DNA from: Pecten maximus
Taxonomy: Eukaryota
Assembly (NCBI RefSeq): GCF_902652985.1
Contig: NC_047020.1
Span: 38,316,001 to 38,380,000 of the forward strand
Reading direction: 5' to 3'
DNA: 64,000 nucleotides
Shown here: in pieces, positions 19,553 to 56,329 of the stretch
How the letters are laid out: each line of letters begins with the position of its first letter
Position numbering within the stretch: position 1 is the first letter of the stretch
Program-made: the position numbers and the translations under genes
Notes under the pieces: generated by a model
Database searches by the model: none
What the model was told of the DNA's origin: nothing
The model's input: only the letters and a program-made list of their open reading frames with translations

Positions 19553-21228
19553 CTAAGATTTTGGCAATAAATTCCTTTTAAGGAGTTGAACATCTGTCAA
19601 TATTTGCTTCACATTTTCTCCTAAGTGTACATGTGAACTGACCATGAAATCCCGAACTGTAGACGGTCCCCAAATATTGCTTGAAGGTCTCAAACACCCT
19701 TCATTACAACGGTAGCTGCAGCTTTGTACTTGTTCTTGTAGATTGTCGGAAGTTGTTGGTTTCTGCTTAAGTTCCTCCACTGATTTGTGATGCTTTAGTT
19801 CTGATTCTAAGTATTCTACAAGATTGCGTAGCTGTTCACTCTGATCAGTCGATTCCTTTTGCAGATCTTTAACGCTCTCTAGCGTTGTTTCTGTTGTTTT
19901 CTAGAAAATACATTAAACAACATACAACAAAATATACCTGGAAGTGTTTTATACATAATAAATATATGAGCTAACTAATTGTTTTAAGCCAGACACTTGA
20001 AATTGTATTATCGTGTACGTAGGGAGAGAAGGGACTGATATAGAAACAATGATGTCTGCAGTGTTCCGGAACTACAGTGTATGTCTAGAACCTCTATAAC
20101 ACATAGCTGACATATTCTACTCTTTAATATAGCCATGAATATAGTCAGACACATGTTTAATAAACAATTGATCACAATTTTGTCTGTGATGAGATAATTT
20201 TCCCATGTGCTACTACATCTATTCACGTTATTATATGTGTATCCTGGCCGATAATCAATGTTTGCAGTGATAACTTGATATCAGTGGTCCGGGTTGTCAG
20301 ATATCATAGAATCACCATGCATATATAATGCATATGTAGCATTTATAATAGGGTACATTTTACCTCATAACACACTAGAAAATAAAGAAAGAGCATGAAA
20401 TAAGTACCTACATGTATCTGAAATCTTGAATCCATTTTGAAGGCAAAAGGACGTAAGATCTCATTCAACCTTTTAATAACTTGTTTTTCTCACCTTGATA
20501 TCTTCATACTTTTCACATAGGCCATCCAGGATAAAGCATACGTCTGCCAAATTCTGCTTGACGTCATGGTTTGTTGTTCCTACCTGAACATTCTTGCACC
20601 TCAAAATTTTTACGTATCGAGGACTTCGCACTATATCACCAAGGATTTTAGTTACTTCATTCAATGTTTCAATAGTGTTACACTGGCTAGTTAAAACAAT
20701 ATTATCTGTCCTTAGCATTTCATCTTCTCTTCGCGAAATCTCTATTTCTCTTCTGGAGATTTCTTTTTCCCTATCTTCCAATGCACATCTTGGTACCTCA
20801 TTCGGTGCAGAGAGTGGTCCAATACCATCCTCTTCTTCTGTGTTTGTGTTGATTACCTTAGTAATCCCAGACGGCTCACTATTGCCTTCCTCGTTCAATT
20901 TATCTGAAGAATTTTCAGTCATTGTCGGAAGACAATTACGAAAATCAAAACTGTCATATTCAGGTGCCGCTAGGCTGACTGATTCCTGTTGTAGTTCGTT
21001 ATCATTTCTGCTACCTTGATCACACTCGGGAACATCAACATTGGATACTTCTTTGCTTAGATCAACACCGTTTGTTGATGAATGAGAAATCTTGTACTGT
21101 TGTGTTTTTCTTTTCTTGAAAATCTTGGTTAATCTTTGTCTTAGTGTGGAAGAATCATTTGTCTCACTCTGAGTTTTCCGAAACGCTTTCTTCCGCCGAA
21201 TATTGGATACAGATTGCCCGGAACCCAT
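19553..21228 (-). CDS. Cluster paralog A: coiled-coil plus RHIM-like motif protein; join(20494..21228,19553..19900), 360 aa from the first ATG
   Basis: Donor ATCAAG|gtgag at 20493 and acceptor tttctag|AAA at 19901, phase 0, frame preserved. High similarity to B, C and D (e.g. NTIETLNEV, LCEKYEDIK, NIWGPS). Motif YVKILRCKNVQVG. The exon opens at an acceptor at 21253, so the true N-terminus may extend upstream. Confidence 0.85.
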
Positions 21229-23164
21229 ATCAGTCTTTTTTTTTCTTTTATCCCTAAAACAGAAATACTTACAATCAATTGTTTTCTTCTAAATTCTATT
21301 CGTATGTATCGGGTACGGAATTTATTCTGAATGGATTGTACTGGTTGAAAAAAAAAACGTATAAAAAAATTATAATGTAAAGCAAAACATCCATTATTCA
21401 ATACATTTACAAATGTCCTTATTTGATCTAAAAAAACGATAAGTACAGGTATATAATCTTCACCGATATACCTCGGGGACTAAAATGATAAGTCTGTAAC
21501 TTCAAGGGATTGTAAAGAAGGCTCACACAATTTTGACCACCATTCAGTACGATTTTACATACAATCAAGTTGTACTATCTCTTGCATTGAATCAGGTTGA
21601 TCTCCAGGTTCGGAGATAAAAGATATCCTGACATTGTTCGACTTATATGTGGACGTTCTTCTGCAGATTCGACGCTTTACTTACAAGCTTCGATGTAGGA
21701 AACCTGATCCGCTACCTCACTGGGGTCATTCCTCGTATCCCAATATAAATCTCATATAGTGGTACGTATCACAATATATTTTTCCATATAGTGGTGCATA
21801 TCCTGATATAATATTCAGGTAGTGGAACATTTCTTACCTGAGGTGAATATTTCTAAAAATCCAATCAGTGTGATGATCAGCCTTTCTAGTATCCAGTACA
21901 TTAGTTGCTGCCTATGATTTATCATAGACTATATTGACAATTATCATTTACATCACGTGAGATAACTGTTTTAGATATCGTGTTATCATGCCCTGAATTA
22001 GCTATCATATTGAGATAACTTTTTACAGGTTTATCCATAGCAGAATTTATGTAACAGGTGTTAATACATTGATGACAAATACAGTTGCTGATAAACACGT
22101 TTAATAAGAGATAGCTAAATAACGTTGACTGAAAAGTTAGAAAAAATAATTTACTACTTTACATTCTGTTCAGTCCTTAGCACTTAGTGTAAAAAATGAA
22201 ACATTTAGGGTAAACTAACCAAAGATATCAAGAAGATATATCAGAGTCATTCATTATTTTTATATTAAAAATATTGTAATATTATTATGATGCAACTTGA
22301 TGTGTTGTATTTTGCCCTGACGTCAATGAATTATTGCCAGCATATGAAATCTGTCATATGTTTGTTGTGTACACGATATGTGTATAGTACACAGCCAGTG
22401 AAAGATTATAACTCACCTCTATCAATCTCAACACGATATCATTCATTCTGAAATACATTTGACGGGAATTGGTTCATTAGAGATATTTGATAAGAACTTT
22501 GTTGTATATTGTATATATTTTTGAAGTTTAGCTTACAATAATAAATTTGAAAACAAGTCTTCACATTTCCGGAATTCGTTAAAGAACAACTATGAAAGAC
22601 TCAGGAGTCGGGTTAACAATATTTTTAAATTCCGCTTAATGTCAATTTTATCCAAAACATTCAAGGGAAGATAACGATAGTTTGAGAATGCTGTTGTATG
22701 GAATACTAATAGGTTAAGTTTTGACGTGTGAATAAAACATTTGTTTGAAAAATATCTTTTGTGTGCGTCTGTTTTTTTGTGTGTGTTTTTTATATCATAC
22801 CATGAACAACGAACTGTTTTGTGTGGTTAAAAATATTTTATTACAGATAATGCTGCTTTTCGACCCCACCGCAGTCAGTTAGTATTTCATAAGATGGCGA
22901 TACACAAATTTCTATACTTAAGATTAAAAGCTTCATCAGTTCCCAAACATAAAGATATATAACGTGTAAAATATTCTGGTTATAGATATATGTAGTTATT
23001 ATCACATTAAATAGAAATTCTTCATAAATGTGTAAGAGTGACTTCCCTTTAACCTTATGTAATGACGAGTACTGGGTAGATGCTAGTATGCATCTTATCA
23101 ATGGTTAATGTATAATACAGTGTCCTTATATTGGTGATTGGACAATAAGTGGTTACACACCCTT

Positions 23165-23330
23165 GGGCGACCGGAGCTAGATTCCAGGGTCGAACGGGAA
23201 AAGGTATGGGGGACCCAGTACGCCTGTTTCCTCCCACAGTAAGACACCTTGCACACCATCCGGGTCAACAAGTGTGATTTATATAAGCTGATAATACTTG
23301 TTTTACAGTTGAAAATGAATACAGTTTATA
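23165..23330 (+). mobile_element. Degenerate V-domain SINE (second family)
   Basis: TTTCCTCCCACAGTAAGAC...CCATCCGGGTCAACAAG...ATATAAG is shared with 26489-26625. Confidence 0.55.
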
Positions 23331-54339: not shown

Positions 54340-54580
54340 ATCAGTCATCAATACTATGACGTCATATTTCGACAGAAAAGCCGTCTGCTGATGTATCCGG
54401 AATCAGTCATGAACGCTGTGACGTTGCATTTTGATAACATAACCGTATGCAGATCTTAACAAAATCAGTCGCCATTAGGTCGACATCATGTTTCGATAGA
54501 GCAACGCCTGTTGATCTTATCGTTATCATGCATTGGTTCTGTGACGTCATATTTTGACAGAGCAACCGGTTGATGGCCTT
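54340..54580. repeat. Degenerate repeat of about 60 bp x4
   Basis: TGACGTCATATTT(C/T)GACAGA...CCG recurs at about 54357, 54419, 54481 and 54542. Confidence 0.55.
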
Positions 54581-54990
54581 GCAAGATCAGAAGAAGCCAG
54601 TAAAAAACCGATATCATCGATAGAATCAATCATTTGTGTGAAAATATCGAACAATTAAATGATACAAAATGTATGTTCGAATCTCTGCAAAATCAAAACC
54701 ATGGAGGATATTATGGATAACATGGAAACTACCAAAAATTTAAAGACAACCTTAGATACCAAGTATGCATTAACAATGCACAGTTAAAATTAAATCAAAT
54801 ATTCAGAAGTCTTAATATCAAGTTTTACATCAACAACGTTCTCTTTTTGAACATTTTCTTAGGGTCGTTTAGATTATTAGTTTTTGTTTATTTTTCTGTT
54901 AAAAATGAACATAACATTGTTCCACGGGAGGTATTTCTGCTTTAATTACCTGTGTTCTTAAAAAATGTGTCTGGTAAATTCCTTTCCTTA

Positions 54991-56329
54991 TTACACTTTC
55001 GTCTGGTGAGCAAAAGATCTTTCGCACTCAAGTTTTCCAAAATCAATGAGTAAGGTATGCAATTTATAAATAATATTGTCAAGGCCATAAAATCTCCCAG
55101 TGTTCCTTTCAGCACTCTTCAGACGTGCATCCATATTGGCCAGCAACTTCAATATTTCATGCTGACAGCAGGAGACGTCACTGATGACATCAGAAGGTCC
55201 CCAAACCACACAGTTCCTGGAGCCAGATAAGCTTTGCTGGGACGAAAACATGGACACTCTAGGAGCACAATAGTCATCCTGGATAAAAGAATCATCTGCA
55301 TTCTCAGAGGAGTCGTCTTCCAATGGTGCAAGCAATTGCTCTAATCTCTCACGCAAATACTTCATATCATTTTCCTGTTGCGATCTGTCTTTACTCGACG
55401 TATTTTCCATGTCCACAACTTTTCCAAGATATTTTTCCCCGTCCTCTGTTTGAAAAAAACACAGCATTCACTTATTCATGTTTAAATCGAGATCAGGTTT
55501 GAAAACTGTCTTGGCGGAGGGATAAAAAATAAACTTAGAAATAGAGAAACTATGCATAGCACAACCTACCTTGACCTCCTCGCTGTTTTTGCATAGTCCG
55601 TCTAGGATCATACGTACTGGTTCAAGAATCTCCTTTGGGTCGCAGACACTGAATCCTACCTGTACATTCTGGCACCTAGACATCTTCACATACCGTGCGT
55701 TTTGTGCAAATTCTGTCAATGTATCCGTCATTTCTGATATCACCTTTTGTTGCTTTTCAATTGTTTTCATCATTTCCATTTCCATTGCTGACTTTTCATT
55801 TTCCACTTGAAGCAATTGTCTTTCAAGTTGCTTGATGCATTCACACTCGCAAGTACGTTCACACGAGGTGATAGCTCTATCTTCAACCGGATTTTCTGTG
55901 ATAGAGTCATGGTCTTTTGTTGTGTTTTTGTTTTTTTCTTTTACCACTATCTTTCGTAAAGTGTTGCGTGAAGTTCAAAGAATTCTCACCTTGTGGTGTG
56001 GGTAGATTATAAGAATTCTTAATTCGTTTTCGCGTAAAAAGGCCTTTAATGTGCTGCTTGATTGACTTTTTTTCTTTTTTCCCCTCATTTCTTGGAGATT
56101 CCATGTCACTAACCTTGCTCTTGTGTTTCAATAAACGTCTTTTCTTTGTCTTCAGTTTAATCTGAGAGCTGAATGCATCCTTTGACTTTTCGTCGTCATC
56201 ATCTCTCATTTCATCTATCATTTCATGCATATGTGCAACAGATCTTGTCTTAAATAGACGATTGTTTTGTAGCTCTCCGTTTTGTGTAATATCCCGGAGG
56301 TCCGGCATGGATAGTTGGTTGGTAGCCAT
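54991..56329 (-). pseudogene. Cluster paralog D, frameshifted; exons about 55570..56329 and 54991..about 55449
   Basis: ORFs 55907..56329 and 55468..55947 overlap and are joined by removing one A near 55939-55942. Donor AAG|gtagg at 55569 is at the same position as in A-C. Motif YVKMSRCQNVQVG and C-terminal VWGPS. The expected acceptor reads tttttttcaa rather than cag. Confidence 0.75.

Follow-up and report, generated by a model that had tools for sequence, protein, structure and literature searches.

The RHIM (RIP homotypic interaction motif; PF12721) of mammalian RIPK1, RIPK3, TRIF and ZBP1 is defined by a core tetrad, (V/I)-Q-(V/I/L/C)-G (PMC13506858). Deep mutagenesis of RIPK3 is reported to identify V450, I452, V458 and V460 as the nucleating tetrad and to give the second interface little weight in nucleation (bioRxiv 10.64898/2026.02.19.706818), and C455 is placed in the same core (bioRxiv 10.1101/2025.03.26.644761). 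The tetrad Gln (Q540 in RIPK1, Q459 in RIPK3) forms a ladder that packs on strand β3, at the β2–β3 interface of the fibrils (PMC12575786), which it is reported to stabilize (PMC12575786; bioRxiv 10.1101/2025.03.26.644761). A relaxed, cryptic RHIM (cRHIM) of the form VxxG is found in the arthropod IMD pathway, in PGRP-LC, PGRP-LE, Imd and Pirk and in shrimp SRB2 and IMD; the core reads VHIG in shrimp IMD, where its deletion abolishes aggregation, and LHFG in Drosophila IMD (PMC10268257). The HET-s prion-forming repeats and the HRAM, PP and BASS motifs have a central β-arch geometry in common with the RHIM (PMC4262963). Here we analyze a 64,000-nt stretch of Pecten maximus NC_047020.1 (the window; coordinates are window positions unless stated), in which four tandem paralogs, A–D, carry a motif with the spacing of the RHIM core.

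Six-frame translation confirmed the four tetrads reported in an initial annotation of this DNA (VQVG, IKIG, IHIG and VQVG, with Lys in B and His in C at the Gln position), all on the minus strand and one in each paralog (Table 1). The tetrad is part of a 13-residue motif with aliphatic residues at i, i+2, i+8 and i+10 and Cys at i+5 in all nine sequences of an alignment comprising A–D and five homologs (P0002, P0003, P0005, P0007 and P0009; P0011, an isoform of P0007, was excluded before all counts). This is the spacing of V450, I452, C455, V458 and V460 in the β1–arc–β2 core of RIPK3, and it makes the resemblance to the RHIM closer than the tetrad alone would indicate. In the window and its flanks, the core pattern is rare, with 13 matches in 367,948 six-frame residues, four of which are A–D. 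The tetrad itself is looser. Gln occupies i+9 in five of the nine sequences, the remaining four having Lys, Lys, His and Ala, and Gly occupies i+11 in six, with Cys, Ser or Asp in its place in P0002, P0007 and P0009. The full RHIM tetrad is present in A, D, the Ylistrum protein P0003 and the Mizuhopecten protein P0005 (4/9) and not in B, C, P0002, P0007 or P0009, and a cRHIM-type (V/I)xxG is found in all four window paralogs and in six sequences overall.

The likeness to the mammalian RHIM stops at the second strand. The β3 core positions i+16 and i+18 are aliphatic in none of the nine sequences and both fall at the start of a helix, with Asp and Lys/Gln/Glu where RIPK1 and RIPK3 have Met/Leu and Ile/Met. 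The third strand of the RHIM (Asn, followed by apolar residues at L466/M547 and M468/I549) was accordingly not found in the nine-sequence set; Asn at i+14, the position of RIPK1 N545 and RIPK3 N464, occurs in four. RHIM-type disordered flanks are not present either, as long helices bound the motif in the model of C described below, whereas merely nascent helices are reported to flank the RIPK1 RHIM (PMC7618886). Also unlike the mammalian proteins, the scallop proteins have a charged outer face on the motif and no kinase, death, TIR or Z-alpha domain. We do not regard these motifs as canonical RHIMs, since PF12721 does not match them, the third strand is missing and their flanks are long helices rather than disordered. 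As judged from sequence, the motif is a half-RHIM or cRHIM-like β-arch inside a coiled coil, undescribed so far, and not a member of the RHIM family; it may have descended from a RHIM or converged on a common β-arch.

The other described systems resemble the scallop motif in part. The IMD cRHIM has a similarly relaxed tetrad, and the IHIG of C is one conservative change from the shrimp VHIG. However, Gly is reported to be absolutely kept in the cRHIM (PMC10268257), whereas three of nine scallop sequences have replaced it, and neither a PGRP nor a death domain, nor any other known domain, passes the cut-off in the scallop proteins; the likeness may be one of similarity rather than homology. HET-s and the HRAM, PP and BASS motifs likewise come in gene clusters with related motifs, but they pair an NLR with an effector and place the motif at protein ends, whereas the scallop motif is central in a single coiled-coil layout throughout. 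No NLR–effector motif pairing was found in our own-genome searches, in which family matches, at limited sensitivity, were confined to A–D.

The layout shared by the scallop proteins was read from their sequences and from an AlphaFold2 monomer model of C (mean predicted local distance difference test score (pLDDT), 54). It consists of a basic N-terminal helix, ~190 disordered residues and a helix (residues 195–252), followed downstream by helices at 274–335, a linker and a final helix (376–406). The second helix has a clean heptad pattern by inspection. Between the helices at 195–252 and 274–335, the motif (255–269) is non-helical with a pLDDT below 50, which would fit an element whose folding awaits assembly, and the flanking helices lie ~3 residues before and ~5 after it. 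Paralog A starts with MGSGQS and then a basic cluster (21228–21180, minus strand), which we take to resemble a myristoylation signal and polybasic membrane anchor; B, C and D are without such a start. Every member, distant Mizuhopecten proteins included, has the conserved sequence (I/V)W(G/K)xSxV just ahead of its last helix, a candidate second interaction site. A second β motif in exon 2 was considered and rejected, the model of C being helical there (376–406). A homo-trimer prediction for B residues 215–345, made without using an alignment, scored 0.18 against a mark of 0.32 and is no evidence either way.

The reading that we tentatively prefer, at a probability of about 0.45, is that A–D are tandem scallop paralogs with a two-strand, RHIM-spaced motif between predicted coiled-coil helices, in which the core is fixed and changes of the outer-face Gln likely tune stacking. 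The basic N-terminal helix, with the myristoylation-like start in A, would anchor the protein at a membrane, and two to four chains would be brought together by their coiled coils. Only once gathered would the motifs fold, and they would then stack in register, through their aliphatic and Cys core, as a short cross-β arch stack. Lacking β3, the Gln would have no burial partner, so that this residue, like the other five outside the core, could drift freely once the genes had duplicated, and the charges at these positions would bias which paralogs stack comfortably together. Because the linkers are so short, a coiled-coil-nucleated stack of limited length seems more plausible than an endless fibril.

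Several observations weigh against assembly of this kind. None of four 33-residue motif peptides matched PF12721 in Pfam at E ≤ 10, and a PF12721 scan of the P. maximus genome (cut-off, 20 bits), the first pass of which may not have scored A–D, did not include them among its five matches (best, 19.5 bits). Those five, short non-coding-looking stretches under the cut-off, were set aside. All four window motifs carry Lys or Arg, A having three such residues; like charges stacked in register are reported to destabilize fibrils (PMC4262963), so in-register homo-stacking is probably disfavored. The helices that abut the motif in the model would leave long fibrils little space. Neither a receptor nor an effector domain was found above the Pfam cut-off in open reading frames (ORFs) or full proteins, and no immune gene, including any of NLR, death-domain or pore-forming type, was evident by eye among ORFs of at least 120 residues in the 60 kb on either side, where small exons would be missed. 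The alignment is nine sequences deep, and amyloid formation by the A–D motif is a putative capacity.

The Gln-to-Lys and Gln-to-His changes were originally interpreted through the Gln ladder. That argument depends on β3, which this family lacks, and both Gln and Gly vary in other scallop members. Since the absence of β3 leaves the Gln without a packing partner, position i+9 is predicted to be exposed on the outer face, and its replacement in B and C is likely to tune rather than block stacking. In a tree built without the motif columns, D groups with P0002 (97/98), and A, B and C group with the Ylistrum protein and one Mizuhopecten protein (89/90, with no resolution inside the group). Gln is present in both clades and so was probably ancestral for them; B and C would then have lost it, as would, separately, a third group. 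VQVG had been proposed as the ancestral word; the co-ortholog tetrads read VQIG and IQIG, and the D ortholog P0002 reads IQVC, its Gly lost, so that the ancestral word appears to have been (V/I)Q(V/I)G and not specifically VQVG.

RNA contigs from six different runs (numbered with an X here) of 24 listed, in two studies, cover A, B and C. The tetrad is IKIG in B-type contigs of X1 and X5 and IHIG in contigs of X3 and X6; an A-type contig, from X4, reads VQVG. Among the few contigs compared, the tetrads therefore look paralog-specific rather than allele-specific, as the initial annotation held. An expressed B allele in X1 has Gln changed to Arg at the non-core position i+4. Coding divergence between the X1 contigs and the window is ~4% (31/759 in A, 20494–21252; 18 in ~420 plus a 27-base deletion in B, 24177–24623), and the last exon of B has frame-changing indels near 23642 in X1–X3; these differences reflect high allelic diversity.

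That the motif diverges among A, B and C was the basis on which a combinatorial pairing code was first proposed. The flank words quoted for A–C are present, but 11 of 43 flanking-helix columns vary, so the flanks are conserved rather than nearly invariant. Variation is found in 9 of 13 motif columns (Fisher P = 0.007 against the flanks; P = 0.034 against 30 of 83 other core columns), whereas a scan test in which the 13-column window is chosen post hoc gives P = 0.54 for variable columns and 0.20 for state changes. Across the 36 pairs of the nine sequences, the motif/flank divergence ratio exceeds 2 only in A–B, A–C and B–C (2.1, 2.7 and 5.0); the remaining 33 pairs give 0.35–1.32, values that saturation may have compressed, and between A and D the motif is the best-kept part (3/13 versus 28/43 flank differences, P = 0.011). 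If the outer face of the arch had been selected to diverge after duplication, A, B and C would prefer themselves or distinct partners, and comparison of substitution rates among the paralogs gives a divided answer. Between B and C, all six non-core positions differ, with 8.0 non-synonymous differences per 14.1–14.8 sites (0.54–0.57) against a gene-wide synonymous rate (pS) of 0.29–0.34 (binomial P = 0.028–0.099) and a non-synonymous rate of 0.08 at core positions; when the same pattern was placed elsewhere in the gene, only 1 of 318 placements had a rate as high as the non-core one. The stability of the tetrads across the individuals seen fits such a code, as does the report that natural tetrad variants alter RIPK3 output (PMC12119088). 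However, the A–B and A–C non-core rates are not above pS (P = 0.47–0.95), one of six tests falls under 0.05, and whole-motif ratios of non-synonymous to synonymous differences (pN/pS) are 0.52–0.63 in all three pairs. Moreover, own-genome searches of low sensitivity (2/2 candidates each) found no outside protein with a matching motif, and the expressed B allele already differs at i+4. We take the B–C outer-face change as a weak hint of diversifying selection, and most of the change in B and C as probably relaxed constraint with possible B–C selection; new pairing specificities within the cluster are possible on this one weak signal, and a selected code is unlikely as the explanation of the family. 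Gene conversion may have homogenized the helices so that the motif looks fast, a partial artefact compatible with the other readings. The synonymous divergence between B and C, 0.34 across the gene, is 0.14 for the flanking helices but 0.53 for the motif, and in a contig of X3 an upstream flank resembling B (7 differences over 173 nt) runs into the motif of C (0 differences from C), which together suggest conversion; the X1 B-type contig also has several C-like bases. Yet the synonymous contrast is weak (~4/8 versus 4/26, rounded; P = 0.07), pS ranges from 0.07 to 0.66 along the gene, and A–B and A–C are without such a contrast. The X3 contig has a depth of 4 and switches inside a stretch of more than 31 identical bases, and it may be an assembly chimera. 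We hold conversion to be a somewhat doubtful account of the fast motif.

A non-amyloid role would make the motif a structural β insert in an oligomeric coiled coil, a β-arch rung reached by convergence, whose surface varies neutrally like that of inter-helix loops. Short β elements that break heptad helices are known from coiled coils, and the spacing V-x-I-x-x-C-x-x-V-x-I is typical of CAP and tubulin-cofactor-C (TBCC) β-helix rungs; the scallop motif, however, has a single rung per chain and no significant sequence or structure match. The missing profile match, the loss of Gly in three and of Gln in four of nine sequences, the abutting helices, the charged motifs and the 33 pairs in which the motif is no more divergent than its flanks are all consistent with a structural insert. 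The retention of Gln in five sequences and of the full (V/I)Q(V/I)G tetrad in four, across two clades, argues against it, as do the better conservation of the motif than of the helices between A and D and the Asn at the N545/N464 position, and a purely structural role seems rather improbable to us. The initial annotation also raised the possibility that B and C are chain-terminating decoys, able to cap fibrils of A or D because Lys or His takes the place of the ladder Gln. The ladder does stabilize RHIM fibrils, Lys stacked in register would repel, and inhibitory RHIM-like proteins are described in Pirk and in viral M45 and ICP6 (PMC4262963, PMC13506858). The ladder belongs, however, to the β2–β3 interface, which is absent here, and the viral decoy M45 is reported to retain its Gln (Q62; bioRxiv 10.1101/2025.03.26.644761); moreover, of the two genes with VQVG, D is itself frameshifted in the assembly. 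Because His occupies this position in amyloid-forming, signalling IMD cRHIMs (VHIG and LHFG; PMC10268257) and the nucleating core is intact in both B and C, the decoy reading is poorly supported and very improbable. Elements of several readings would combine if the two-strand RHIM-type arch in its coiled coil were a paralog-sorting zip, the constant core stacking all paralogs and a six-residue face, selected and in B and C also converted, setting their co-assembly; we consider this quite unlikely. The initial observation is largely right, but a more apt frame than a switching RHIM tetrad is a young cluster of scallop paralogs in which the half-RHIM core is fixed and its outer face variable.

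The family appears narrow. A profile search (HMMER) of 1.84 billion representatives gave nine matches, six of which belong to the family, namely C itself, three proteins from Mizuhopecten, one from Ylistrum and one from a metagenome. Named homologs come exclusively from scallops. The other three, P0004 and P0008 (bacterial and filamentous-haemagglutinin-like) and P0006 (a fish repeat protein), were dropped as repeat-driven. When whole domains or motif peptides of A, C and D, or distant homologs, were searched against the P. maximus genome, only loci A–D were returned as family members; L029, matched via its coiled coil only, is a separate protein. Word-indexed homolog searches added nothing beyond B, and metagenome scans found no relative. 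In Pfam, no family was above cut-off in ORFs or full proteins, the sub-threshold matches being to coiled coils only (for example, DUF16). Foldseek gave no match in the Protein Data Bank (PDB) at E ≤ 0.001, a PDB sequence search with the motif peptide gave none, and PDB profile matches to TAL-effector repeats and designed coiled coils were rejected as repeat or composition artefacts (1–4 bits per repeat). The ESM Atlas returned no feature match, and its structure matches were generic helices below the bar. We found no mention of five family gene identifiers in the full text of the searchable literature, and no description of these coiled-coil genes among the RHIM literature results listed for molluscs, bivalves, scallops or coiled coils, a search that most subscription papers lie outside.

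Every tetrad is close to the end of a long coding exon, with a GT donor at the same codon in all four paralogs (Table 1). The main exon of A, from an ATG at 21228, encodes in order the basic N-terminal helix, the disordered stretch, the coiled coil, the motif and the start of the second helix. The B splice 23961/24177 is seen in RNA contigs of X1, X3 and X5, and an X6 contig extends from the C exon end at 36129 into exon 2 sequence, a loose end. The database labels of P0015 (B) and P0001 (C) are uncharacterized P. maximus proteins. On D, the tblastn alignment of P0002 falls into two frames, and the frame from the ATG at 56329 ends before the motif. Because of this alignment, and because exon 2 keeps the frame only if a tandem AG is used, D is either a pseudogene or an assembly error. 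The frameshift at 55970–55935 and a probable second one at the exon 2 start (55445–55420) are both near A-rich runs.

Table 1. Positions of the A–D gene models, their motifs and neighboring features in the window
Feature	Position	Strand	Basis or remark
A tetrad VQVG	20589-20578	-	six-frame translation
B tetrad IKIG	24272-24261	-	six-frame translation
C tetrad IHIG	36224-36213	-	six-frame translation
D tetrad VQVG	55665-55654	-	six-frame translation
A half-RHIM motif YVKILRCKNVQVG	20578..20616	-	
B half-RHIM motif YVNISQCKSIKIG	24261..24299	-	tetrad kept in B-type contigs of X1, X5
C half-RHIM motif YVNMAGCRDIHIG	36213..36251	-	same in contigs of X3, X6
D half-RHIM motif YVKMSRCQNVQVG	55654..55692	-	
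A main coding exon	20494..21252	-	ORF; X1 RNA contig joins 21252/21837 and 19900/20494
A last coding exon (second coiled coil continued, linker, C-terminal helix led by WG-S, stop)	19553..19900	-	
B first coding exon, P0015 = LOC117330180	24177..25082	-	P0015 residues 1-302 identical (100%)
B last coding exon	23566..23961	-	RNA contigs and P0015 match
C first coding exon, P0001 = XP_033743697.1, LOC117329717	36129..37016	-	database match
C last coding exon	35537..35881	-	
D first coding exon, frameshift near 55970-55935 relative to Mizuhopecten ortholog P0002	55570..56329	-	tblastn
D last coding exon	54991..55445	-	in frame only via tandem AG two bases past first AG
(I/V)W(G/K)xSxV before last helix, A, B, C, D	19580-19660, 23640-23730, 35570-35660, 55150-55215	-	
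ORF E, β-arch-like stretch YNVGNAELVSISG	50623-51669	-	
ORF F, β-arch-like stretch FIINEASAVSIHVG	60324-60920	-	
Tandem array, 54 bp unit, 7.3 copies	13146-13541		open in several frames
Tandem array, 80 bp unit, 10.6 copies	25590-26439		upstream of B
Tandem array, 34 bp unit, 7.6 copies	60080-60337		at F end
Direct duplication, ~1.5 kb, 90% identical	45555-47026 and 47576-49017		between genes
Direct duplication, 460 bp, 95% identical	31627-32088 and 32088-32551		between genes

Two further ORFs, E and F, flank D and share its layout of basic helix, disordered stretch, coiled coil and β-arch-like stretch. Neither has a significant match to A–D (P0007 matches F at E = 0.37), and each has one significant own-genome match; they are possibly very distant members of the cluster. 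Three tandem arrays and two direct duplications also lie in the window. Upstream of it, in loci L016–L020 (contig positions 38283174–38314540), several exons code for one transmembrane-like helix and, after it, cytoplasmic tails that are acidic or basic.

The A–D genes are uncharacterized at present, and we regard the finding as moderate. The family looks like a natural version of the RHIM with the β1–β2 interface alone, in which the same five core residues are kept and the outer ones vary freely. It thus offers a ready series with which to ask whether assembly requires β3 and the Gln ladder, and what determines the specificity of cross-seeding. Sorting of paralogs by a zip of this kind, if true, would give animals a counterpart to the specificity codes of fungal amyloid motifs. 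If the motifs do not assemble, they are a useful warning that the word VQVG does not equal a RHIM; if they do, RHIM-like signalling would extend to a new architecture in bivalves.

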